DNA of 64,000 bases. It comes from Heteronotia binoei. Taxonomy: Eukaryota. Shown here piece by piece: positions 19,696 to 54,559 of this stretch. The notes below the pieces were generated by a model. That model did not search any database and was not told the origin of the DNA. It was given only the letters and a program-made list of their open reading frames with translations. The stretch is taken from the NCBI RefSeq assembly GCF_032191835.1, contig NC_083240.1, positions 46,066,001-46,130,000 on the forward strand. Direction: 5' to 3'. Position 1 is the first letter of the stretch. Each line of letters starts with the position of its first letter. The translations under genes and the position numbers were made by a program.

Positions 19696-20170
19696 TATCA
19701 GACACTGGAAAGTTATCATGATAATATGATGCTGGATTTAAACTGTGGTGAACTGCTTAGCTTAACTGACTCCATTTTCTAGCATATGTTACTAACCTCA
19801 AGGAGAAACCTTGCATATCAAAGTAGAAGTATAGTTGCTGCTAACAATAGTGTGAATTCCTGTCCCTGATACTAACAAAGGCAACATCCCTTTGAAGATA
19901 AAATGCCTCAGGGAAGGCCAGTTGGGCCATCCCTGTGAGAATGAGAACCACAAAGAGATAAGAGAAAACAACCATGTGAAATGTATCACTTCATTGTGGG
20001 AATGTAGATGTGTTTAGAAACCTTTGATGTACAACTCATTAAAATATCTATGCTCCGAGGGAAAAGTATCAGTTCCAATCTTGCTGCGCTCAGAAACTAT
20101 GAACTATCAAATAAAGTTTTAACATTGCAACAAATGGAGTCTGCTTAATTTGAAGTTCCATTGTCTGACA
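19696..20170 (+). repeat. Gypsy 5' LTR
   Basis: TATCAGACA (TG mutated)...TGTCTGACA; AATAAA 20110-20115; about 15 differences from the 3' LTR by eye (~3%). Confidence 0.95.
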
Positions 20171-20222
20171 TTTTGGAACTGATCCAGTACGGGTTTATCC
20201 GAACTGGCAACTTTTAAACTGA

Positions 20223-21821
20223 ATGGCTGCCAAATTTCCGGATAACGGAGAACCCACCGAACCTGTGGAGGAGCCGAAGACGCCCCCTGGAGTCACCGCT
20301 ACCCAACGAAAAGGGGGGTCCCCGCTACACTTCCAGATGCTTCTCATCACCCCGCAGAAGTGGAAACCCCGCACCTCAACCACCCTCATGGATGAGGCGG
20401 CGGGACGGTACAAAAACATATTCGCCAGACCGGATACCGGCGTGGAGGGCATCCTGAGAAAAGAGGATGCCAAGGACGGTCGAGGAGGTGGCCCGGACCG
20501 AGACGATGGCAGAGCCCCGAGGGAAGAAGAAAGCATTGAACAGTTGAGAGACGAGATGTGGAACTGGGTGAAGGCGATCCGGAACGAGATCCAGGCCAAC
20601 GTGGTGCACATCACCCGAGAGGTGCAACGGCAGCTGGACCAGATGCGAGAACAACCGCGGCCCGCGCCTGACCAGCCAGCACCTCAACCTGATCCACCGG
20701 TGTTGCAACCCGACCCGCCGGCACCACAGCCCGATCTACCAGTGCTGCAGCCCGATCAGCCAGCGCTGCAACCAGATCCGCTGGTAGTTCCACCAAGGGG
20801 GGCCAGCCGAGCCGCCGGCACCGCCAGCCCCTGTGGGACCTCCGGTGGTTCCGGGCCCAATCACGCCACAGATCCCAGCGGCGCCGCCAGCATGGCCGAT
20901 CGGGCCATTTGCCCCACAACCACTAATGCCAGGGCCCTGGGGTGGAGGCAGGGGCCAGGGGCTAGACATCACCTTCGATGGCGACCCGGAGGAGGTGGAG
21001 TATTTCACCATCCAGAGCAACAGCTACATGCACTATTGGGGGAACACCTTCCCCGATGAGCCCAGTCGGGTGGACTACTTGGGGTCGAAGTTGAAAGGAG
21101 CAGCTAGATGATGGTATGTGAGTTTGTATGAAAGCCGGGCCCCTGAGTTAACCAATGTGGAGGGCTTCCTGCAAGCGATGCTACATCAGTACGGGGATCC
21201 TCTCCAAGAAGTGAGGGCCCTCACAGCCCTGCGCGACCTGCAACAAGGATCAAGGTCGGTGAGGGAGTACACAGCCGACTTTAGAGCACACTGCGCTAAA
21301 GTCCGAGGCTGGAACGAAAGGATGAGGATCAAAGCCTACCAACGGGGCCTCAACACGAGCCTCCTAGACCAAGCGTTCCATCAGGCGCGACCGACTACCC
21401 TGGTGGGATGGATACAGCTGGCGGGGGAGGTTGAGACCAACATGAGACACATCGCCCTGCAGTGACAGCAACAACAAGGGGCGAAAGGGGGACGTGAGGC
21501 TCGGCCGGGGACCAAACCTGAGCCCAAGAAAGTGCCGACTCAGGGGAGAACCCCCAAGTTGACGCCAGGCCGGAAATGCTTCCAATGTGGTGATCCGGGG
21601 CACCTAGCCGCCAACTGCCCGGAGAAGCCTTGAGCCCCCCCCCCCTTGACCTCGAAGCCGACCGCCGCGGGGCCAAAGAAAATACCGGGAAAGCCTAAAG
21701 AGCCCAATCGGGGCAGTGCTGCCACATTGTTGGCGCTTGCCGAGGATGTTATAACTATCAACGACTCAGGGGAGGAGTCGTGGGAACCGGAACCGGCGGG
21801 AAACGAGAGTGACCTGCACTG
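20223..21821 (+). pseudogene. gag: Gypsy gag (frameshift plus several TGA stops)
   Basis: Retrotransposon capsid-like segment (FDGDPEEVEYF...LGSKLKGAA), LQQGSRSVREYTADF, CCHC knuckle CFQCGDPGHLAANC at ~21578-21619. Confidence 0.88.
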
Positions 21822-23230
21822 AAGGGTGCCGGACGGCAGGTCGTGGATTTGACTGCACCACTATGAGTGAGAATAACTGGGGCCCTACTATTTGTACCAG
21901 TGACATTGTTGAGCCCAAAACTGAAACGATTCATGCATGCCCGGGCCCTACTCGACTCGGGCTGCACCCGCAAAATCATAACCCCAAGGCTAGTAGACGC
22001 CCTGGGGTTGTCCCAAACTCCCCTCCCCCACCCAATCCAATTCGAACAGATGGACAGGACTGCTATCAGGGGAGAACTGTGCACAGAGGAGACCCAGGGG
22101 CTGCCGGTGGGAATTAAAGAGCACTGGGAGGTGGAAGTCTTCGTCATCGCCCCCTCTTCCTCCTTTGATGTAGTGCTAGGGGTGGGTTGGCTGGCCCGAC
22201 ACCAGCCGGACATACAATGGGGGGAGCAAACAATAGACTTCACCGACCAACGGTGCACCCACCACCATTGGCAGGGACAGTGGAGGCCAACGCCACCCCC
22301 TAAGAATGAAAAGATATGTGTATCGGTGGAGGAGGTCCGATCAATCCCAAAGGAATATCGAGACCTGCGCAAAGTGTGTAGTGAGGAGGAGGCGAATGAG
22401 TTACCGCCCCACCGGGACACCGACTGGGCAATCAAACTGATCCCATGGCAGGAACTGCCAAAAGCAAAGCTGTACTTAATGGGGTGGGCGGAGAAGGCAG
22501 AATTACGAAAGTTTATTGACAAGAACTTAAAACGGGGGTTCATTAGGCTGGCTACCGCCCCGCACGCCGCCCCGGTCCTCTTCCAGAAGAAGAAGGACGG
22601 GAGTCTTAGGCTTTGCACAGACTTTTGCGGGATAAACGGGATCTCGATGTCCAATGCCTATCCCATCTCACTGATAAGAGACTTGCTAAGCACGTATCCG
22701 AGGGGTCCGTTTTCACAAAACTGGACCTGAGAGACGCTTATTTCCGAGTCAGGATCAAAGAGGGGGACGAATGGAAAACGGCTTTCAATACACCTATGGG
22801 GCAGTTTGAGTATTTGGTGATGCCGTTCGGACTACAAGGGGCCCCCCGGGGTCTTTATGAACTTTATAAATGAGGTGCTCAGGGAATATCTGTACAAGGG
22901 GATGGTGGTGTACCTCGATGACATTATTATCTATTCGAGAGATCTAGCCTCCCACATTCCACTGGTCAGGAAAGTACTCTCTACCCTGTACCAGCACAAG
23001 CTGTATGCGAAGCTATCCAAGTGTGAATTCCACCAAACGGAACTAGACTACCTGGGCTTCCGTGTGTCCGGGAAGGGATTAGCGATGGACCCAGCCAAAA
23101 TACAAGCAGTGTTAGACTGGGAGCCCCCGAGGACACGTAGACAACTCCAATCGTTCCTCGGGTTCGCTAATTTCTACAGGGGGTTCATTCAGGAGTTCGT
23201 CCAAGTAATGTTGCCCCTGACAGACTTACT

Positions 23231-23279
<49 letters not shown>
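23231..23279. repeat. (ATC)n microsatellite, the L2 tail
   Basis: About 16 ATC units. Confidence 0.95.
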
Positions 23280-23280
<1 letters not shown>

Positions 23281-25578
23281 CAATTTTATTTATATCCTGC
23301 TCTCCCCGCCAAAGCAGGCTCAGGGCGGCTAACAACACAAGTCAATACATACATTGTACAGTATTTAACAGTACTAATTTAAGAGTTTAATTAAAATTCT
23401 AAAATAATAAAATTAATATAAATATGTTGGTGCTATTATACAGATGGTAAGTTTGCTTAGCAGTCTCTCTCTTTAGTCAGTGAAGGCCATTCGGAAGAGG
23501 ATGGTCTTGCAGGCCCTGTGGAACTGTTCAAAGTCCCGCAGGGCCCGCATTTCTTCTGGAAGCTGGTTCCATAGCTGTGGAGCCATAACAGAGAAGGCCC
23601 GAGTATGGGTACTCTGTAGTTTAACCTCTTTTGGCCCGGGAATAGTCAGCAGGTTCTTCCCTGCTGATCTCAGTGTTCTCTGGGGTTCATACAGGGAGAG
23701 ACGGTCCTTAAGGTAGGCAGGACCTCGGCCATATAGGGCTTTAAAGGTAATAACCAGCACTTTGTAATGAATCCGGTACATAACTGGCAGCCAGTGCAGT
23801 TCTCGCAGCCCCGGCTGTATGTGCTCCCACTTTGGGAGCCCCAACAACAGTCTGGCAGCCGCGTTCTGCACCAGCTGCAGCTTCCGAGTTCGGCACAGAG
23901 GCAGCCCCATGTAGACGGCATTACAGTAATCCAGTCTCGAGGTGACCGTTGCATGGATCACTGTTGCCAGGTCCCGGTGCTCTAGGAAGGGAGCCAACTG
24001 CCTTGCCCACCTCAGATGAAAAAAGGCTGACTTGGCAGTGGCTGCTATCTGGGCCTCCATTGATAATGAAGGCTCCAGCAGGACTCCCAGGCTCCTGACT
24101 CGGCACGCTGCTTTCAATGGCTCCCCGCCAAAGACCGGGAGAAACATTTCCCCTCCCAGAGCGCCCCGACCCAAGCAAAGGACCTCTGTCTTCGCTGGAT
24201 TCAGTTTCAGCCCGCTCAGCCTTAACCAAGTTGCCACGGCCTGCAGTGCCAGGTCCAAATTCACTGGGGCGCAGGCAGGCCAGCCACCCATTAGCAGATA
24301 GAGCTGGGTATCATCTGCATACTAATGACACCCAAGCCCATACCTCCTGGCAATCTGGGCAGGGGACGCATATAGATATTAAATAGCATCGGTGAGAGGA
24401 CTGCTCCCTGAGACACTCCACAATGTAGTGTGCGCCTCTGAGAGAGCTCACCCCCGATTGCCACCCTTTGTCCCCGATCCTTGAGGAAGGAGGAGAGCCA
24501 TTGTAGGGCCGACCCCCTAACCCCAACATCGGCGAGGCGGCGGGTCAGTAGCCAATGGTCGACCGTATCGAACGCAGCCGACAGGTCTAACAGCATCATC
24601 ACTGCCACACCACCTCGGTCCAGATGCCGCTGGAGGTCATCCGCCAAGGCGACCAGGACTGTCTCCGTCCCATGACCCGGGCGAAAGCCGGACTGGCAAG
24701 GGTCTAGGATGGAAGCGTCATCCAGGAACCCCTGCAACTGCAATGCCACTTCCCTCTCTATAATTTTACCTAAAAATGGTAAATTCGAGACCAGTCGGTA
24801 GTTTGCCAATTCGGCAGGGTCTGCTGTACTTTTTTTTAAGAGGGGATGGACCAAGGCCTCTTTTAAGGGCGTGGAAAATGCCCCTCCAGGAGGGATCTAT
24901 TTATGATGTCCTGTAAAGGACATCTGAGCTCCCTCAGGCAAGATTTAATTAGCCAAGAGGGGCATGGGTCCAGATCACAAGTTGTTGGGCGCGCAGAGTA
25001 GAGAATTCCGTCGACTTCCTCCAGGCTGAGCGGGTCGAAGTGATCCAGGACTAAACCAGAAGACAGGCACGGAGCCTCCAGTTCATGTACTGTATCCAGT
25101 GTGATGGGCAGGTCCTGGCGGAGCCACGTGATTTTGTCTGCAAAAAAATTCGCAAAAGCCTCACAGCCTATTTCTAATTATCTAACATTTGGTCTGCCCT
25201 GGGGCAGTGCAGTTAAATCTCCAATTATTTTAAACAATTGTGCCGGGCGCGAATTTGCAGACGCAATCCTGGCTGCAAAGTAATCTTTCTTCACAGCCTT
25301 GACTGCCATCTCATAAGACCTCATAAACGATCTATAGGATGTTCTCGTTACAAGTGCACCGCCACTGCCTCTCTAGTCATCTAAGTCCTTGTTTCAGCTG
25401 GCGTAACTCCAAGGTGTACCATGGAGCCAGCCTCAAACGAGGGCGTAGAGGACGTCGAGGTGCGATCTCGTTGATTGCCCCGGACAGCCGATCTTGCCAG
25501 GCATCAATCAGGGCATCAAGGGAATCGCCAGGGATCCCAAAGAGCCGTCTGGAACTGTTCCGGGTCCATCAGGTTCCT
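23232..25578 (-). mobile_element. 5'-truncated L2 LINE inserted in Gypsy pol
   Basis: L2 RT motifs (DLSAAFDTVDH, QGAVLSPMLFNIY, SRLDYCN, LQLVQNAAARLL); (GAT)n tail; 6-bp TSD TTACTA at 23226-23231 and 25579-25584. Confidence 0.95.
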
Positions 25579-27637
25579 TTACTAAAAACAAAAGGGAAGG
25601 GGCCGGAAGCCCAAAAGCCCGGGGCCCAACTGCCGTGGACGCTTAGGTGCCAAGCGGCTTTTGACGAACTCAAGAGACTGTTTACTAGCGAACCAGTACT
25701 CGCCCACCCCGATGAACTAAAGCCCTTCGTGGTCCAATGTGACGCTTCTAATGTAGCCATCGGAGCCATATTAATGCAGAAAGACGAGGAGGGGAGGTTG
25801 AGACCTTGCGCGTATATCTCCCGAAAGTTCTCGCACGAGCAGCGCAACTGGTCAGTCTGGGACAAAGAGGTGTTCGCAGTAACGTACACCTTAAAGACTT
25901 GGAGGTCCTGGCTAGAAGGGGCAAGAGTACCATTTGAAATATGGACTGATCATAAAAACCTAGAAGCGCTCACTGGACAGAGGAAATTAACAGCTAAACA
26001 AATTCGGTGGGCTGGATTTTTCGCGAAATTCGACTTTATCCTCCGGCACATCCCCGGTTCAAAAAACTTCTTAGCAGATGCCCTTTCCCAATTGCCGCAG
26101 CATGAGAGCCAAAGAGAAGAGATCATAGACTCGATTATTCCCCCCTCTGCAATCGCGGGGGGAGTGACCACCCGTTCCGGGAAAAAAACGGGGCAGATGG
26201 AACCTTGGGGGGGTAATTGGCTAGTTGAAGAGACTGAAAAGGAGGGAGAGGGGAGGCCAGAAGGGATTGTGAAAGGGGAAGGAGGTTTCTGGTACTACGA
26301 GGGGAAACTGTATGTGCCCAAGACCCTCCGCTCTGAAGTACTGCAGCACTGCCAATGCAGCAAACTGGCGGGTCACTTTGGCTATGTAAAGACGTTACAC
26401 TTGGTTAATCACCAGTTCTGGTGGGCACAAATGAAGAAGGACATTTCTGAATTCGTGGGGTCATGTCCGGTTTGCATCATGGCCAAGCGGAGGGGGCGGG
26501 GAACTGCCAGGACTCCTTCAGCCCATTCCCACAGCCACCAGACCGTGGTTGGTGGTCTCAGTGGACTTCATAGTGGAGCTCCCAGCCTCACAGGGGAAAA
26601 CGGTGATTTTAGTGGTGGTAGACACTTTCTCAAAGCAGGCGCATTTCGTTCCTTGTAAGCAACTCCCCACTTCCAAGAAACTGGCTTACTTGTTTTTCCA
26701 ACATATTGTTAGCCTACACTCATTCCCAGACAAGGTCATTAGCGACTGCGGGCCGCAGTTCATTGCCAACTTCTGGTGGAAGTTTTGCAAAATGGCGGCC
26801 GTAGAACAGGGACTAAGATCCGCCTACCACCCCCAGAAGGACGGACAGACGGAACGTGTAAACAGTCTTCTCGAACAGCATTTAAGGTGCTATGTAAACT
26901 ACCAACAATCCAACTGGGTGGAGCTACTCCCTTTTGTAGAGTACGGGTACAATAACAGCTTGCACAGCTCCACCAAAGCCTCACCGTTTCAAATAGTGAA
27001 TGGCTATGAAGGAAAGCCTTTCCCGTTACTACCAAGTCCCGAGGGGACAGCGCCACCTACCTCTTGCCAGCAATGGTGGGAAGACATAAGAAAAGGCTGG
27101 GCAGCTATTCAGGAGAATTTGGAAATAGCCAAAAGAGACTACAAAACGTATTTTGATAAAAAACACTCCCCAGAGTGGGACTTCAAGGTGGGGGAGAGTG
27201 TGTTTCTATCTACACAGAATCTGCCCTTGCCACACACTTGTAAAAAACTGGCGTACAAATTCCTGGGACCGTTCAAAATTAAACGGGTGATAAATAAAGT
27301 GACTGTGGAATTGGAGCTGCCTAAAATGTTTAGTAAAATTCACCCTGTTTTCCATTGCAATCTTCTTCGGAAAGACCCCGGAATTACGTCATGGCACCCC
27401 CGCCCCCCAGAACCCACTCCTATTCAAGTGAAGGGTCAGAGTCACCATGAGGTGCAGGAGGTGCTGGACTCAAAAATAAAAAGGGGAGTACTGTACTATC
27501 TAGTCCGCTGGAAATACTTCCCTCCAAGCTGCGATGAGTGGGTCAAATCATCAGACCTCCGGGCTCCCTTTCTTCTAAAGAAGTTTTACCTACTGCACCC
27601 AGACAAACCCCGAGCAAGAGCTTAGGGGGGGGCAGTA

Positions 27638-28112
27638 TGTCAGACACTAGAAAGTTATCATGATAATATGATGCTGGATTTAAACTGTGGTGAACTGCTT
27701 AGCTTAACTGACTCCATTTTCTAGCATATGTTACTAACCTCAAGGAGAAACCTTGCAAATCAAAGTAGAAGTATAGTTGCTGCTAACACTGGTGTGAATT
27801 CCTGTCCCTGATACTAACAAAGGCAACATCCCTTTGAAGATAAAATGCCTCAGGGAAGGCCAGTTGGGCCATCCCAGTGAGAATGAGAACCACAAAGAGA
27901 TCAGAGAAAACAACCGTGTGAAATGTATCACTTCATTGTGGAAATGTAGATGTGTTTAGAAACCTTTGATGTACAACTCGTTAAAATATCTATGCTCTGA
28001 GGGAAAAGTATCAGTTCCAATCTTGCTGTGCTCAGAAGCTATGAACTATCAAATAAAGTCTTAACATTGTAACAAATGGAGTCTGCTTAATTTGAAGTTC
28101 CATTGTCTGACA
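27638..28112 (+). repeat. Gypsy 3' LTR
   Basis: TGTCAGACA...TGTCTGACA, preceded by a G-rich PPT (27624-27637). Confidence 0.95.
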
Positions 28113-42472: not shown

Positions 42473-42857
42473 TGAAAGGGGGAGCACTGTTGTTTAACTC
42501 TAGTTCTGAAAACACATGCGGTTGTTAGGGTAACTAAGTAAGAAAATGTTAACTGTAACAATAGTTGGAAGGAGAGAAAAGGGGCGGGGAGATTAGGAGT
42601 GTTATACTTTAAACTTGCGCGCGTTGGTGCTAGGCAGATTGTGAGGGAACCCAACAATTGGTGGGCTCCACGAGGGCTTGGCTAAGGTATATAAGATCTG
42701 TGCTGCGACACAGAGGGCGGAGTCGACGGGTGGAATTCTTCTATCCGGGCTCCCCGTGCCTTGCAAACCACGTTTTGATTAAACAATCCTTGTTGGACCC
42801 TCCCGTGTATGAGTCATTGTTCGACATACAACATCTGGATAGGCTCTACACATGAGA
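42473..42857 (+). repeat. ERV 5' LTR (385 bp)
   Basis: TGAAAGG start; TATATAA ~42687; ATTAAA 42778; about 8 substitutions and 2 indels vs the 3' LTR by eye. Confidence 0.93.
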
Positions 42858-42860
42858 ATT

Positions 42861-42877
42861 TGGTGGCAGAGTGGGAT
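42861..42877 (+). promoter_or_regulatory. Primer binding site, tRNA-Leu-like
   Basis: TGGTGGCAGAGTGGGAT resembles the complement of the tRNA-Leu 3' end (TGGTGGCAGCGGTGGGAT), imperfect. Confidence 0.65.
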
Positions 42878-43135
42878 ACGCATCTTCCTAACGGGGGCCA
42901 TCTCAGCGGTTCAGGGGAAGGCCTCTCACAGGCCCTCGGACCATTTGTCCTTTTAGAGGGATAATCTCCCTCTGACCGCTGCGCAGACCACCCAAGGTTG
43001 ACAAGAACCATAGAGGGTCCTCCAACAATTGTAGAGGCGCCAGGACTCGACCAGCGACGGAAAGTTGGTGAGCGGGCGCCAGCAAGGACAACCAGCGACG
43101 GAAAGCTGGTGAGTATCTTGGTTAAACTAGACACA

Positions 43136-44822
43136 ATGGGTCAAAAGGGATCCAAAAATAAGGAGCGCCGGGGAGACATACCCAAGGGGCAGGAGCAAGG
43201 GACTGGTAAGCCGGTAGTACAGGGGTGCCAGCGGAAAGTGGAGTTCCCTGTGGGAACCCCCTTGGACCGCATATTAAAGGCTTGGGAACGATTTAAAGAT
43301 TATGGCCCAACCAAAGAACAACTGGTTAAGACGTGTTTAGAATGGCCGGCCATCCAAGATCTTCCGTACGGACATCATTGGCCAAAATATGGTACCACTA
43401 ATAAGGATAATTCTGGGTATGAGGCAATACTGGCTGAAGTTGGAACCGCGCCCGGAGGTTCCTTTTAATTTAGAGTGTGTTGCTATCTGAACTGATTTTG
43501 CGAAAAACCCCTTTTCCACCGCCATTACAATGATGGCAGTTGAAATAGAAGAAAATGAAGAACCCCCTGTGTGGGATCCTAACGACCATGTTATAGGGAG
43601 AAGGCGCCCTCTGCCTTTACCAGAGCCCCTTGTGTCAGAGCCCGCCGAAAATAATGGCCAACCAATTAATTCTCCCCCACCATATGCTCAGGAGGCAACA
43701 CCACAGGGAGCCACCTCTAGAGGTCGAGGAGCATATGCCGAGGTGTCCGATCTTTTAAAATGAACAGAAGAATGGGGCCGCCAGGAGGGGGGAGGAGAGG
43801 GGAGGACAAGATCAGAGGTAAAAACAAGCAAGGTTCATGCTCATTTAGCAGACGGTGTGCAAGAACCTGGAAGAGACTTGTTGGCCCCCCTCAGGCAAGT
43901 TCCAATGGGAGAAGCGGTGGGGTATGTAAAAGTTCCATTAACTAGTACTGAATTACAAGCTATGAGAAATCAGTTGCCTCCCTTATCTGAAAATCCAATA
44001 TTGTTCAGGACAAAACTGGATGGCTTATGATGCACATAATAAAACAAGTGGCGGGAAATGAGGAAGCAGCCCAAGCACTTTCAACTGCTAGGAAACATTG
44101 GGTTAAAGGGGCTGGAGATAGAACAGATGAAGGAGCCCTGGTGGTTCTTCCTGATGGCAATCCACCAAACCTAGATATTCAAGTAGCTGCTGGACGGACT
44201 TTTTGTTCCCAATATAGGGGAATGTTATTGGATGGGTTGGTAAAAATGATTCCCCCAGTGGTTAATTTTCATAAGGCTTTTGGAGAACCCCAAGGCTCAG
44301 CAGAACCCCCTTTTCAGTTCCTAGAAAGGTTAAAGAACAATATGACCGCTTTTACAGGGCTAAATCCCGAGACAGATGAAGGAAAGGTAGTCTTGAAGTT
44401 TCACTTTGTGGAACAAAGCAACCCAGATATAAAGAAAAAGCTACAGAAGTTAGATGGTTTGCTTACAAAGCCCCTGACAGATCTGGTGGTAGAAGCACAG
44501 AAAGTTATAGCCCGAAGAGAGGCAGAGAAGGAAGCAAAGACAGTCAAGTTAATGGTACAGACAGTGAGGGAGGTACAGAAGCAGGAAGACAGAGAGAGAA
44601 GAGGAGGTTGGAATAACAGAAAGAAAGGAATGCGAGGGAGGGGTTCCCGCCCCCCTCCCATGGGAGGGGCAGAGGGACTCAAGAGAAGAGAGGGGACCCC
44701 TGCCCAAGGATGTGTGCAAGTATTGCAGGATGAGGGGACATTGGGGAAGAGAATGTCAAAACAGAGATAAGGAAGAGTGGGAAGGACATAGGGTGGCAGC
44801 CATGTATGAGGATGGAGAATAG
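43136..44822 (+). pseudogene. gag: ERV gag (stops and frameshifts)
   Basis: MGQKGSK myristoylation start; PPPY; MHR-like QGSAEPPFQFLERL; CKYC..GHW...C knuckle; TAG 44820-44822; splice donor GTGAGT ~43109. Confidence 0.92.
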
Positions 44823-47800
44823 GGGTGTCATGGGCTCCTATATTCGGGACCCAGCCCCAAAGAGCCCTTGGTAAAACTAAGGCTGGGACCGAAAAGAGAG
44901 AAGATGTTATTTCTGTATGATACTGGGGCTACAAGATCAACATTACAAAAGTTACCACTAGGTGTCAGATTGGGGCCACTGAGTGTTAGAATGCGAGGGG
45001 TCAAAAACAGACCATTCCAAGCACCCATCACTGAGGAAACTGATGTAATATACCCAGGAAGGAAAGAGACAGTACGACATATGTTTGCCCTACTGGGGAG
45101 GGAGGGGATGAATTTGATGGGGAGAGATTTGGCTGATAAGATAGGCACCATGAATATTATAAAGGAGGGCCGATGCATAGTGAGTTTAGCAGCACTATCA
45201 GAAGAAAACCAAGGAGAAATTTCTCTCAAAGTATGGGCGGCCCCAGATAATCCGGGCCGGATGGACGTGGCCCCAGTTGAGGTTGTATTACAGGATACTC
45301 GGCCCATTTACCAAAAACAGTATCCGATAACAAGAGAACAGCAGACGGGTATCTATCCAGTTATAAGAGAATTGTTAGCTCAAGGATTGATTGAGCCCTC
45401 CACTTCTCCCTGGAATACCCCCATTTTGCCAGTAAAGAAACCTGATGGAACATATCGCATGGTGCAGGACTTGAGAAAAATTAACAAAGTGGCATTAATC
45501 CGTTCCCCTCTGGTGGCAAACCCACACGAAGTTATATCCACCATAAAACCAACATCTAAGTGGTACACAGTGATAGACATTAAAAATGCCTTCTTTTCAG
45601 TGCCACTGTCCCCAGACTCTAGGCCAGTCTTCGCTTTTCAGTGGCCACATCCCCACACCCACCAACCAGCCAGGTGGCAGTGGACAGTGTTACCCCAAGG
45701 ATTTGCGGAGAGCCCATCAATTTTCTCCAAAACCTTATGGGAGGTTCTAAAGGAGTTCCCAGTCCCGAGAAATGGCCCTACGTTGTCCACTTATGTGGAC
45801 GATCTCCTGATTGCGGGGGAAGTAAAGGAAGAGGTCAAAGAATTAAGTGTGGCCCTTTTGAATTTCTTTGGAGACCATGGGTTGAGGGTGTCAAAAAACA
45901 AACTGCAGTTCGTGGAACCTATGGTGAGATATTTGGGAATAGTTCTTGCAGAAGGAACCCGGTGTGTCCCTCAGGAAAGGATTCAGGGGCTGCTGGGATT
46001 GACCCCCCCCAAAAAAAAACAAAGAAAGACCTCAGCGGGTTATTGGGAGGTTTTAATTACTGCCGTTTGTGGATAAATGGATTTTCTCAGCTAGCTGCAC
46101 CACTGTATGCCAAGTTAAAAGATGTAGAACCAGATAGAGTACAATGGGGAAAGGAAGAGGAAGGGGCTTTGGCACGATTAAAGCAAGGGGTCATGCAGGC
46201 ACCGGCTCTACATCTCCCACGGTTTACTGAACCGATTCATTTAGCCGTGGATGTAGAAAAAGGGGTGGGGAGAGCGGTAGCCTTCCAAGAGAGAGGTGGG
46301 AGGCATTGCCCCCTAGGGTATTTTTCTAATACACTAGACCCAGTGGAACGAGGATGGCCGACCTGCTTTCAATCTTGTGCAGCTGCAGTAAAAGCTCTAA
46401 CGGCGGCAAAACAACTATTTTGGATGGGACACTGGATAGTACACACAGTGCACAACATTAGGGGCTTGCTGACACAAGCAACAAACCAGCACCTCTCAGA
46501 TGCCAGATTATCAAAAATGGAAGTTTTGCTAGTATCCCCTGGAGACCTGACCCTGGTAACAGACTCCTGCCCCAATCCACTTCTAGCCTTGGTGGGCTGG
46601 GAGAGGTGCAAGGGAACACATGATTGCATTCAATTGGTTTCACTTCAGACTAAGGTACGGGAGGATTTAGAGGAGACACCCATACCGGGAAGTGAGGTGT
46701 TTTATATTGATGGAAGCAGCCGGGTAATAGAGGGGAGGAGAGGGACTGGGTATGCGGTGGTGGAAGGTTAGGGATTTACAGTGGTTGAAAGGAAACCCCT
46801 TCCCCAGCATTGGTCTGCCCAAACAGCAGAATTATATGCACTGAACCAAGCCTTGAAAAGAAGCCGAGAAAAGTCTGTTACTATATACACAGATTCCAAA
46901 TATGCTTGGGGAGTAGTCTACACTTTCGGTAAATTGTGGAGAGAGAGGGGACTGATATCAACCAGGGGAAAGCAACTGGTACATGAAAAATTAATAAAGG
47001 AAGTATTGGAAAATCTCCTTCTCCCAGCTCAAATAGCGGTGGTGCACATATCAGCCCACCAGAAAGGAAATTCTGATAATATAAAAGGGAACAACAAAGC
47101 AGACATAAAAGCAAAAAGGGCCACAGAGGAGTTAATAGTGGGAGCCTTGGTCCCTGTCTTACCTTCAATTCAGCCTGAAACACCTTTGTCTTATACGGAG
47201 GAGGAGGCCCAGATAGCCAAAGATGAAGGGGGAGTTGAAAAGGGTGGAAAAATATTCATTCAAGATAGGTTGTGGTTGCCAGAGGCCATGGCCTGGTGGG
47301 TGTTCAGAAAACTACATGAGGGAGGGCATTGCGGGGTAAAAGCACTGATAACTATCTTTCAAGAGAAGTACCTCACCAAAAGCCCATGGACGATTGCACA
47401 ACAGGTGTTGAAAGGATGTGAGGAGTGTATGAAGGTGAATAAGATTAACAGACCAAGGGGAGAGAGGGGGGGGGAGACCTTTACCAGTACGGTCATTCCA
47501 GCATGTACAAATGGACTACATTGAAATGCCTAGAGTGGGAAGGTTGAAGTATGTCTTAGTCCTAACTGATCAGCTCACAGGGTGGGTTATGGCTTTCCCT
47601 ACAACATCAACTTCTGCCACTGTAACAGCAAAAGTAATATTAGAAAAGGTGATTCCAGAAATGGGTATAATAGAGACGATGGACGCTGACAGGGGTCCTT
47701 CATTTGTTGGGAAAGTATTGTCAATTACCCTCAAAGCTCTAGGGATTGAGCTAAAACATCATACCCCATGGCACCCCCAATCTAGTGGACAAACTGAGAG

Positions 47801-48406
47801 AATGAACCAGACCTTGAAAAAGGCAATAAAAAAACTGGTTTTGGAAACCCATTTGCCTTGGACAAAAGTATTACCTCTAGCATTGTTTGGAATTAGGACA
47901 AAGCCTCGACAAGGAATACAGCTGTCTCCTTTTGAAATGTTATATGGGTTCCCACTATGGAGGGTGATGCCCGATACAGCTGCAGACAATTTACACTTGT
48001 TAAAAGATACGTATGTACGTGAATATGTGCTGGCTTTGTCCTCTCTCCTTGTCTCATAGGGAGCAGGGACTCATACACCTCACTCCACCATTGGAGGCTT
48101 CTGTGCACAGATATCAACCTGGGGACTGGGTGTACATCAAGAGATGGAAAGAAGAGACCCTCCAACCAAGTTGGGAAGGTCCTTTCCAGATTCTGCTAAC
48201 CACTGAGACCGCAGTAAGAACTGCAGAGAGGTTGGACACATCATACTCGCACCAAGAAAGGGGCAGAACTGGAAAACTGGACCAGCCAGCCAGTAGAAGG
48301 AGAACCCCTGAAGCTGCGATTAACAAATGTGGGAACTAACCGACCCAGACAACCCAGAGTGGACCTCAGTGCAACGTTTCTTGACAGTATCTTCAGCGTG
48401 GCCTGA
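44823..48406 (+). pseudogene. pol: ERV pro-pol (PR, RT, RNase H, IN), disrupted
   Basis: YDTGA, LPQGF, YVDD, FYIDGSS, HHCC, QMDYIEMP, WEGPF; frameshifts near 46010, 47465, 48055 and 48230; TAG at 46769. Confidence 0.96.
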
Positions 48407-49401
48407 TGAGTGGATCACAGAAGAGCTGACTCTCTGGAAAGGACCCTTGTGCTGTCATTTGAATTTCTGGCTTGTGGGACAAGCCTCAACTGCACCCTTA
48501 TTCCCTACTTTGTTTGATTTTATGGCAGGCAGACTCTTGGTGAAAGATCCAAGCTTGAATCTTTAAATCCCTTTATGGTCAGGGACCTGCCTATCTACGG
48601 GACCGCCTTTCCCCATATATCCCCCAGAGAGCACTGCGATCAGGGACAAAAAATCTGCTGTCTGCCCCTGGCCCTAAAGAAGCCAAGTTATGCATAACGA
48701 GATCCAGGGCTTTTTTGGTGGCAGCACCAGAACTTTGGAACACCCTCCCAGAAGCTATAAGGGCCCTGCGGGATTTGTCGGCGTTCCGGAGCGCCTGTAA
48801 GACTGAACTGTTTAAACAGGCTTTTGTGGTTGATTGAAAAGGGGCTGCCACCGGACATCCTACAGAATGCTGGCGATCATAGTCAGAAGTCAATACCGCC
48901 TATATTGGATTGAAACAGCGCTAATAGTTTTAAAATTGATAAGTAAATTATGGTTTTATATGTTTTATTGAATTGATTGTTTTTATGATGTTGTAAGCCG
49001 CCCTGAGTCCGCTTGCGGAGAGGGCGGGATATAAATGTAAAGTAATAAATAAATAAATAAATAAATAAATTTATAAGGAAAGATATCGATTTGCAAAAAC
49101 AGGGAGCACTCCTAGAATTTGGAAGGTTTGGGTGGTGAGTGATTGGGAGGATGGTGAGGCTAGGGGGTTGCACCCACATGAGGATTGAAATACTGGGTGG
49201 AATACCCTGAGCTATTTCCAACCAGACAACTGGGGAGAAAGTTGTGTAACCCTTGTGCACCTGAAGGGGAGGTTACGGTATGGCAGGGAGGGGGAAATTG
49301 GGAAGACTGCTGGGATCCCTATGGGCAATGGTTTTATTCTCAATCGTTCTAGGAGGATGGGAGCAGAATATTTGGCACAAAACAATGAATGCCATAATTA
49401 A
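48327..49401 (+). pseudogene. Candidate ERV accessory gene between pol and env, split by L2
   Basis: 79 codons + 38 codons rejoin in frame across the L2 TSD; TGA 49186; then 70 further open codons. Confidence 0.5.
48566..49069 (+). mobile_element. L2 3' fragment with (TAAA)n tail inserted in the ERV
   Basis: LYGQGPAYLRDRLSPYIPQRALRS parallels the L2 at 23473-24291; TSD TTTA at 48562-48565 and 49070-49073. Confidence 0.88.
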
Positions 49402-50710
49402 AGAAGCCAACCTTACAACTTGTTGGGCCTGTGTGCACCCTCCCTCTTCAGGAGGGAAGGGATGGCCCATGATGGTTACTGCAGTACTTTCTCTTTATGG
49501 ATGGAATATGACATGGCTGCATGCTGCAATTAACGGTTCCAGAATTCCGAAGAATCAAGGAACCATCCCCAAGGATAAAGACCAGATCTTATTAACTAGA
49601 CAGGACTTATGGCCTGAGGCACAAGTGTGTTTCCAATGGCATAATCAATCAGAATATCATGTCATTAGTGATGGTTCTCCCTCTGGGCTTAGAGTGAGAA
49701 GGGCTTTAGTAGGTGACTATCCGAAGTGCAACTTAACAATTAAAGTGGGACCCGGGATAGAAAAAGGAGCCAATGGAAATAACTGGAGCACCCCTTTTTC
49801 CATTTATACAGACGGGTCGAACCAAACCCCAGTTATACAATTATACTCACAGAAGGGGCCTCAGTTGTTCTTTGGGATACAAGAACGAATTTATATGAAT
49901 CACGGGGAATACTTATATGGATTACCATCAGGAGTTTTGTGGATTTGTGGAACATGGGCAGGAAAAATATTACCTAGAGTATGGAATGGAACGTGTACGG
50001 TGGGAACAGTTGCCCCAGGGGATATTGCCTTTCATATTAAACACCAAAGCCTAGAAATGTGGGATTCACACATGAAGTGGCAGAGGGTGAGAAGAGAGTA
50101 TGATGAAAGCAAGGGGTATGATCTAGACAATACGTATCTGTCCGAAGGGGAGAGGTATGTCGCCATCACGTTTTGGGGTGTAGGGATAGCATGGAATGTG
50201 AATACAATAAGGAGGTTAAGCTATACAGTAGAAAAACTGGCAAACACAACTGCAAAAACTGTACAAACCTTGCAAACAGAAATTGAATCCTTAGGGGCAG
50301 AATTGTATCAGCACCGCTTGGCTTTGGACTATTTGCTTAGTGCTCAAGGAGGCTTATGTATTTGGCTAAATATAACCTGCTGCCATTGGATAAATGAATC
50401 AGGTAAGATAGAAACAGATGTGAAAGTCTTACAAGGTATAGGGATACAGGTACGACAAATGTATTCAGAGAGTACATGGAATCTTTGGGATTGACTTACA
50501 AGCTGGTTACCTAACTTCAGTTGGTTAAAGGGTTTGTTCACTGTTGTTTTAATTATTTTATGAATGGGGGTTTTGGTTTGCTGTTGTATGCAATGCTTAC
50601 CAATATGTATTAGCTTTATTAAGGACTTGAAGCCAAAAACACAAGTAGTTATGGTTTTACAGCAAACACCACAAGTAGAATATGAGAGCATCATTATAAG
50701 TTCGAACTAG
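49280..50710 (+). pseudogene. env: ERV env; 404-aa open ectodomain, TGA at 50492 and 50561
   Basis: Signal peptide, CWAC (CxxC), furin site RVRR, ISU HRLALDYLLSAQGGLC, CX6CC; hydrophobic anchor lies beyond the first stop. Confidence 0.93.
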
Positions 50711-50743: not shown

Positions 50744-51122
50744 TGAAAGGGGGAGCACTGTTGTTTAACTCTAGTTCTGAAAACAGGTTGTTAGGGTAAC
50801 TAAGTAAGAAAATGTTAACTGTAACAATAGTTGGAAAGAGAGAAAAGGGGCGGGAGATTAGGAGTGTTATACTTTAAACTTGCGCACGTTGGTGCTAGGC
50901 AGATTGTGAGGGAACCCACCAATTGGTGGGCTCCACGAGGGCTTGGCTAAGGTATATAAGATCTGTGCTGCGACACAGAGGGTGGAGTCGACAGGTGGAA
51001 TTCTTCTATCCGGGCTCCCCGTGCCTTGCAAACCACGTTTTGATTAAACAATTCTTGTTGGACCCTCCCGTGTATGAGTCATTGTTTGACATACAACATC
51101 TGGATAGGCTCTACACATGACA
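50744..51122 (+). repeat. ERV 3' LTR (379 bp)
   Basis: Preceded by PPT AAAAGAGGAGGGA; ends ATGACA, followed by TSD GAAA. Confidence 0.93.
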
Positions 51123-53549: not shown

Positions 53550-54218
53550 TATTTCCACTAAATGGCACCCGATGAGGGTGAGGCGTTGTCGCCTCCACTC
53601 GCCCCTTTAGCCCATTGGCCGGAATGCATTGTGGGAATCTTCCTCTCCTTGGCGCCACGGCGTTCTGCGCGCGATGCATTGTGGGACTCCGGGCTCCTCC
53701 TACCGTGGCCGGATCTCCTTTGCGTGGCGTTTCAACGGTCCCCCATTGCTCACAGCGTATTGGAAGCTTCGCGGGTGAGAAACGCTAACTTTGTAACCGG
53801 ACCCACGAGGCCTCCTCCGCTTCTTTTCCCTACCTTTCGTGCGGTGAGCGCCTCAACGCGGAAAACCAGACTTTGGTAGACTATTTTTTTTTTTAAAGCG
53901 TGCTTCCGAAAGGGCGCATGCGCAATTTAAACACGAAACGACCACGTAACACTCACAGCCGCCGAGCCGCTTCACCGCAACTGAGGAGCGCGGGAGGATC
54001 CTTGCGCGAGACAGGTAAGCCCGCGCGAGACGGGCGCCATTTTGTGGCGGTTGTTAGGAGGGAGAGACAGAGGAGGAGCCGCCTGTCCCGCGCCTCGACT
54101 TTGCTTCTCGTCCTCGCCCGCCCCGAGTCGCCTCCTCGCGCGGGTCCTTCCTCCGGCTCTCCGCCCTCTTCCTCGCGCAGCGGCCGCCCCACCAACCGCA
54201 GCCATTGCAGACCTCGCC
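53550..54218 (+). promoter_or_regulatory. SRSF1 CpG-island promoter / 5'UTR
   Basis: CpG-rich; TGCATTGTGGGA x2 (ZNF143/Staf-like) at 53625 and 53675; GCGCATGCGC (NRF1-like) 53914; CGCCATTTT (YY1-like) ~54036. Confidence 0.8.
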
Positions 54219-54412
54219 ATGTCTGGAGGCGGCGTGATCCGCGGCCCGGCCGGGAACAACGACTGCCGCATCTACGTGGGGAACCTGCCGCCGGACATCC
54301 GCACCAAGGACATCGAGGACGTCTTCTACAAGTACGGCGCCATCCGGGACATCGACCTCAAGAACCGGCGCGGGGGGCCGCCCTTCGCCTTCGTCGAGTT
54401 CGAGGACCCCAG
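54219..54412 (+). CDS. SRSF1: Serine/arginine-rich splicing factor 1, coding exon 1 (RRM1)
   Basis: [40 protein letters not shown]...FAFVEFEDP; donor GT 54413; 194 nt. Confidence 0.98.
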
Positions 54413-54559
54413 GTGAGGCGCCCCTGAGATCCGCCTGCAGGGGCGGGCAGCGCTGCCGCAGCCAGAGAGCCCCACCGAGTTCCCTGCCTCATCGCGACGG
54501 AGGCGAGCACGTGGACACCCCCCCCCCCCCGCTGATAGAGCCCGGGCAGCCCTCTTGGT

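Follow-up and report, generated by a model that had tools for sequence, protein, structure and literature searches.

Gamma-type retroviruses are the standard example of a simple retroviral genome, with accessory genes few in number or lacking (PMC9967133), and the gamma-related endogenous retroviruses (ERVs) of anamniotes have the typical simple layout (bioRxiv 2021.11.23.469661). An 8.65-kb provirus in the 2.63-Gb genome of Heteronotia binoei raises the question of whether a virus with a gamma-like backbone may nevertheless carry such a gene. It lies in a 64,000-nt stretch of contig NC_083240.1 (assembly GCF_032191835.1, positions 46,066,001 to 46,130,000, forward strand), hereafter the window, whose numbering is used throughout. 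An initial annotation of the window had proposed a hidden open reading frame (ORF) rich in Trp, Cys and His between pol and env, somewhat like lentiviral Vif. It suggested looking for uninterrupted copies and measuring the ratio of nonsynonymous to synonymous change (dN/dS) across them, and named stops in those copies, absence of selection or an alignment to env as contrary outcomes. The frame, here called ORF-X, is almost certainly a real protein-coding accessory gene of a replicating virus, kept by purifying selection between integrase and env across distant lineages. The simple gammaretrovirus layout is thus departed from, the window lineage having one additional selected ORF and its sister lineages two.

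ORF-X is a selected gene

The genome holds many matches to ORF-X, and the counts of them are lower bounds. DNA searches returned 40 and 22 matches; 6 of the 32 loci read hold 172–174 open codons, one of these six starting with ATA. A protein search gave at least 86 matches out of 131 candidates, and at least 24 of the 86 span 160 or more residues with no internal stop. The intact proteins are 172–197 amino acids (aa) long and 35–62% identical to that of L002, one of the two copies closest to the window. They occur in two pol clades, in which reverse transcriptase (RT) is about 46% and the integrase core 55–58% identical, and precede two env types whose surface subunits (SUs) barely align. One young family comprises 13 copies with 96–100% protein identity, some of them with long open gag, pol and env. 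Twenty loci picked for divergence were mapped for context: 16 have integrase upstream and 10 have env downstream, the remainder being decayed or deleted; the flanks of L085 gave no retroviral match.

Selection was estimated by the pairwise Nei-Gojobori method in 16 pairs of natural copies, using codons outside the overlaps with pol and env. In the 11 estimable pairs dN/dS was 0.10–0.48, synonymous divergence (dS) being saturated in the other five, and the synonymous excess was significant at P ≤ 2e-4 in 15 of the 16. The exception is the young pair L090/L093 (dN/dS 0.48, 11 differences, not significant), a point on the contrary side; three further pairs with dS below 0.5 gave 0.14, 0.15 and 0.25. 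The +1 and +2 frames of X contain 5–12 stops in all 11 copies compared, and profile comparison of ORF-X with both env types found no homology (probability 0.04% and 2%). It is because of this purifying selection, the blocked alternative frames and the lack of env homology that ORF-X is regarded as a protein-coding gene. The central proposal of the initial annotation, that a class I virus has an accessory gene not described before between its pol and env genes, is therefore borne out by intact copies, selection and the failure to align with env, and none of its contrary outcomes was encountered.

Two structural variants of the family were also seen. In L095 (6438–8291, plus strand) a deletion joins the first ~97 X codons in frame to env, giving a 618-codon open frame. 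On G000:C2 (17.67–17.80 Mb), six near-identical proviral copies (L006, L009–L011, L015 and L016) lie 21–26 kb apart and have an X frameshift in common, probably as a result of tandem segmental duplication.

The window copy is a fossil

In the window, ORF-X is a dead fossil copy broken three times, by a long interspersed nuclear element (LINE), by the stop at 49186 and by a frameshift near 49238:

48327–48565, plus strand: ORF-X piece 1, 79 codons from the ATG, weak start context, CxH inside, 96% identical to L002
48566–49073, plus strand: LINE insertion, 508 nt, 5′-truncated, with a (TAAA)n tail and a TTTA target duplication
49072–49238, plus strand: ORF-X piece 2, with a stop at 49186–49188 that is missing from the two closest copies
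49239–49352, plus strand: ORF-X piece 3, in a shifted frame, with CxxC and CW, over the env start, stop at 49350–49352

The ATG at 48327 overlaps the end of pol, whose frame stops at 48404–48406, and opens 79 codons, as initially described. The initial annotation was also right that the frame is cut by a LINE, whose TTTA repeats lie at 48562–65 and 49070–73, and that the stop at 49186 is secondary: the closest copies, L002 and L003 (94–96% identity), have neither the insertion nor a stop at that position, and L002 is a single open frame of 172 codons. The inserted LINE, which may belong to the L2 clade, is a high-copy element (4260 candidates, of which 40 scored, itself excluded, showed 96–98% identity), and its longer copies encode RT and endonuclease domains. 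The proposed reconstruction of ~188 aa, with 70 further open codons running to 49401, has to be corrected in its C-terminal third. Near 49238 the window lacks 1 nt in comparison with L002 and L003, which shifts the frame, and beyond this point the frame 49239–49352 matches the family profile at E=1e-11, against E=0.98 for the frame first proposed, whose last ~55 codons are off-frame. Since the homologous frame ends at 49352, the gene is ~172 codons long, and its overlap with the env start amounts to 73 nt. The env gene begins with a hydrophobic leader at 49280, about 950 nt after 48327, as had been noted. Its start codon (L090:7034; window 49280) is embedded in conserved Cys/Trp codons of X, at positions that differ by env type.

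Predicted protein

In all ten full-length rows C42, C138, C159, W12, W25, W37, W99 and W160 are invariant, while H44 and C141 are conserved in nine, giving the Cys/His pattern CxH...CxxC...C. The protein is rich in Trp (7–10%), as first claimed; His, which had been grouped with it, is not high (1–6 per protein). X is acidic (net charge −2 to −11) and looks like a soluble protein, with no hydrophobic segment (maximum KD19 0.6–1.2, against 1.8 for the env leader), no signal peptide and no N-glycosylation sequon. In the structure model (pLDDT 76, pTM 0.77) a helix at the N terminus is predicted to be followed by five strands in succession and then by a Cys cluster; this would be a soluble domain, its C-terminal part small, which a zinc site (CxH, CxxC and the distal Cys) probably ties together. 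None of the 36 X rows matched Pfam at E≤5, the X profile matched no PDB sequence at E≤10, and fold searches with this pLDDT-76 model gave no match to a known or cellular protein. The only relatives that turned up were two, both distant and unnamed.

Expression

Three sites bear on how X could be expressed:

43106–43114 (GT at 43109), plus strand: leader splice-donor-like site, three such sites being present in 42850–43400, with a counterpart in the sister-family leader
48040–48059, plus strand: acceptor-like site in integrase, a pyrimidine tract then AG/GGA, shared at the homologous position by 16 of 25 copies
48510–48528, plus strand: another acceptor-like site, located within ORF-X, candidate acceptor for env, with AG in 17 of 23 scorable copies

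The integrase site at 48059 is the best acceptor candidate for a subgenomic mRNA. The two acceptors initially suggested do not hold up: the one at 48189 coincides with the Gln codon of GP(F/Y)Q, which reads AG in 4 of 11 comparable copies, the other 7 having AA, and the one at 49266 lacks a pyrimidine tract and is missing in L017 and L024. Counted from 48059, the X start is the first AUG in four of the six window-clade copies read, and L007 has three extra AUGs ahead of it. In all the copies listed, position −3 of the X start codon is a pyrimidine, and the frame that follows is poor in AUGs. With expectations derived from each copy's protein sequence and codon usage (eight copies, related to each other), 4 AUGs were observed against 35 expected between the internal site (48528) and the env start, and 6 against 22 in the upstream part; the pol (8 vs 6.4 expected) and env (8 vs 9.8) controls were not depleted, and ORF-Y, a second orphan gene described below, had 4 against 8.

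Complex retroviruses make accessory proteins from a spliced subgenomic mRNA, of which the conserved acceptor-like sites and the AUG depletion are indirect signs here. The weak start and the AUG depletion together suggest a bicistronic X/env mRNA. The leader donor would be spliced to the 48059 acceptor, the X start would then be the first or nearly the first AUG, and ribosomes bypassing this weak codon would traverse a nearly AUG-free frame to reach env, as in HIV-1 vpu/env. The acceptor inside X may additionally serve env in some lineages. Its AG is missing in 6 of the 23 scorable copies, including L093, and because the env frame of L093 is open all the same, leaky scanning is favoured. The bicistronic model is weakened by the extra AUG at 48144 in the window copy and by the depletion values of single copies, which are related (P = 0.003 to 0.32; 2 AUGs vs 3.5 in L087).

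A second orphan gene, ORF-Y

The sister lineages carry ORF-Y, which the window lineage lacks:

L090:6130–6552, plus strand: ORF-Y, between the pol stop and ORF-X; also in L093, L099, L087 and L146
L089:3504–3827, minus strand: divergent form of ORF-Y, 108 codons, in a sister lineage

The protein is 141–144 aa long and basic (+9), has 30 genome matches and no database match, and its dN/dS is 0.21–0.28 in three pairs. A short PxxWxxxxCxxC motif is common to X and Y. It scores 24.8, where the highest of 60 column shuffles reached 20.9, but with a probability of only 9–32%; this is a lead for regarding the two as paralogues.

What ORF-X may do

In favour of an arms-race role, X is less conserved than pol, with 35–37% identity against 46% in RT and 58% in the integrase core. 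Its tree places L083 and L084 nearer the window clade than L090, whereas the integrase tree groups both with L090 (split support 100/100), a conflict that points to exchange between lineages. Elements of two kinds are informative here. L152, L153 and L154 are very young recombinants (LTRs, long terminal repeats, 99.8–100% identical) and have lost nearly all of env; pol is in pieces and no gag match was found, while X is open, and their 5′ part and their X derive from different lineages. L159, L160 and L161 are young non-autonomous elements (LTRs 97–99.7% identical); they retain gag together with an env match over its full length, but pol and X are both largely deleted. Since X is open in env-deleted elements and mostly deleted in env-retaining ones, it has no fixed link to Env, and the element does not need it in cis. 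This pattern is consistent with an exchangeable factor that acts in trans inside the cell and has no connection with Env, which is the profile of a counter-defence protein. X would then be a non-enzymatic intracellular adaptor acting in trans on a host antiviral or silencing factor, working like the lentiviral accessory proteins without kinship to them. We infer that such an adaptor is the most plausible function, with a chance slightly better than even. Several points tell against it. Most other branches in the X and integrase trees are weakly supported, and dN/dS in the env-deleted group is 0.18–0.71, with P<0.05 in 5 of 15 pairs that are not independent. No degron or ligase-recruiting motif was recognised in X, and deaminase-type hypermutation was not seen, so that no host target is named.

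X might instead be a viral regulatory or replication cofactor, similar to Rev, Rex, Tat or Bel1 or acting as a virion or reverse-transcription helper. Conservation over two pol clades, the putative zinc site, retention in mobile env-deleted elements and the adjacent basic ORF-Y (+9) would all suit this role, which is doubtful because X is acidic (−2 to −11), unlike RNA-binding retroviral regulators, and seems to swap between pol lineages when a cofactor should stay with its partner. It is unlikely that X alters cell physiology (proliferation, survival or signalling) like the accessory proteins of the walleye viruses, possibly as a captured and diverged host gene. Host capture at the same position is known from CrocERV29, with KIT-ligand between pol and env (PMC4299795), but the Pfam, PDB and fold searches gave no match to a cellular protein, and the genome matches that were opened, a minority of the 86, lie in a retroviral context or beside ORF-Y, except L085.

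The Vif resemblance initially remarked on stands for position and size, to which the Trp content (7–10%) can be added, and the predicted helix, five strands and Cys cluster loosely recall the alpha/beta domain and zinc site of Vif (PMC4144255). Yet X lacks the BC box common to lentiviral Vifs (PMC4172784) and the HCCH motif, is negatively charged and has no Pfam match in 36 rows, and APOBEC3 originated in placental mammals (PMC4144255); that a gamma-like virus acquired X as a far-removed homologue of lentiviral Vif, or of foamy-virus Bet, is accordingly very improbable. That the frame is a decayed fragment of env, or arises as a by-product where signals overlap, has hardly any chance of being right, even if X sits where gamma-type env normally begins, contains CxxC and in L095 is fused to env. 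This explanation is already largely refuted by selection measured outside the pol and env overlaps and by the negative profile comparisons with both env types, and X has no signal peptide.

The counter-defence adaptor can be taken a step further. X and Y may form a duplicated, exchangeable zinc-binding pair of undescribed fold with which this gamma-like group neutralises an antiviral factor of non-mammalian vertebrates; we offer this tentatively, as a possibility of less than even odds. If true, the pair would be an independent solution to the problem solved by Vif and Vpx, intact in recently integrated proviruses. Accessory genes usually mark host defences that have been overcome, and retroviral restriction outside mammals is little known; in X, these viruses probably possessed a means, not recognised before, of coping with the host. 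The natural intact copies of X can be used as bait for a host partner, and the structure is solvable.

The provirus and its neighbourhood

The provirus is flanked outside both LTRs by a 4-bp target duplication, GAAA, and has the following parts:

42473–42857, plus strand: 5′ LTR, 9 mismatches over 380 aligned nt against the 3′ LTR
43136–44822, plus strand: gag, Gag_p30 (Pfam), stops and frameshifts inside, terminal stop in the pol frame
44823–48406, plus strand: pro-pol, RVP, RVT_1, RNase_H and rve (Pfam), frameshifted, 3′ end over the first 26 codons of ORF-X
49280–50710, plus strand: env, gamma-type, short SU, CX6CC, TLV_coat (Pfam), premature stops at 50492 and 50561
50744–51122, plus strand: 3′ LTR

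All three of gag, pol and env are disrupted. As gathered from its Gag_p30 capsid, MLV-type integrase C-terminus and gamma-type Env with CX6CC, the virus is class I and gamma-like. The gag and pol genes share one frame with a single stop between them (window 44820–44822; L090 668–2590 and 2594–6121). Compared with solved structures, the sister-family RT (L090; 46% identical to the window RT) scored 199 bits with the murine leukaemia virus (MLV) type, 84 with foamy virus and 74 with HIV-2, in a list that lacks an epsilonretrovirus RT and so does not distinguish gamma from epsilon.

A putative primer-binding site at 42861–42878, after the 5′ LTR, resembles the 3′ end of tRNA-Leu, and a similar site follows the L090 LTR. 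An exon (54180–54416) whose encoded RRM resembles SRSF1 is found on the same strand some 3 kb downstream of the 3′ LTR. A second LTR element occupies 19698–27939 of the window, with 300-nt repeats 98% identical, a Gypsy-like pol and a chromodomain-like end; it is interrupted by a minus-strand LINE (~23300–24900) resembling the family inserted in ORF-X.

Comparison with known systems

X resembles Vif as a small, Trp-rich, probably soluble protein of ~190 aa with a probable zinc site, encoded across the pol end before env, and differs from it in its gamma-like backbone and acidic charge. The BC box, defined as (S/T)LQ(Y/R)LA (PMC4172784), was found in none of seven X proteins with a strict or a loose pattern, and the HCCH zinc motif, which is confined to primate Vifs, in none of the seven, which have CxH...CxxC...C instead. 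No Vif match appeared in Pfam (36 rows, E≤5) or in PDB (profile, E≤10). Lentiviral Vif brings about degradation of a deaminase through Elongin B/C and a cullin. A Vif chain was not among the top 50 of three fold searches with the X model, a result obtained with no pairwise alignment to Vif. Vpu, a small protein of the membrane, is not related to X, which looks soluble, and the X/env mRNA is inferred; the likeness to the HIV-1 vpu/env mRNA lies in a weak-start accessory frame upstream of and overlapping env, which fits leaky scanning (PMC2657110).

The epsilonretroviruses walleye dermal sarcoma virus and walleye epidermal hyperplasia virus (WDSV/WEHV), with orfA, orfB and orfC, are likewise class I viruses with accessory genes, and X and Y may, like some of these, be a paralogue pair. 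The epsilonretroviral ORFs lie before gag and after env. Two of them are cyclin D homologues (PMC4299795), whereas X has no cyclin match in Pfam, and among solved structures the RT of the present group is nearest to that of MLV. Teleost foamy-like ERVs carry orphan ORFs, ORF-1 and ORF-2, between pol and env under similar purifying selection, with dN/dS of 0.13–0.19 for ORF-1 (PMC5210030). By their description they are set apart as class III, foamy-like elements with far larger ORFs (1263–1335 nt in DrFV-2 and PpERV-1; PMC5210030). CrocERV29 is a reptile ERV with an extra gene between pol and env and its core genes kept (PMC4299795); its KIT-ligand ORF is a recognisable captured host mRNA, whereas X has no detectable host source.

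X is not described in the accessible parts of PMC9723728, PMC8278194, PMC8922424, PMC1224870, PMC4144255, bioRxiv 2024.07.05.601823 and PMC6001957, and the literature search, whose scope excluded Repbase, Dfam, subscription papers (including that on XTERV1) and supplements, found no description of ORF-X. The ORF-X family thus apparently represents undescribed accessory genes in gamma-like retroviruses, a group that here carries one or two selected orphan genes. An orphan or captured ORF between pol and env is already known from fish foamy-like ERVs and a crocodilian ERV; neither this protein family nor its occurrence in gamma-like viruses came up in the searches.
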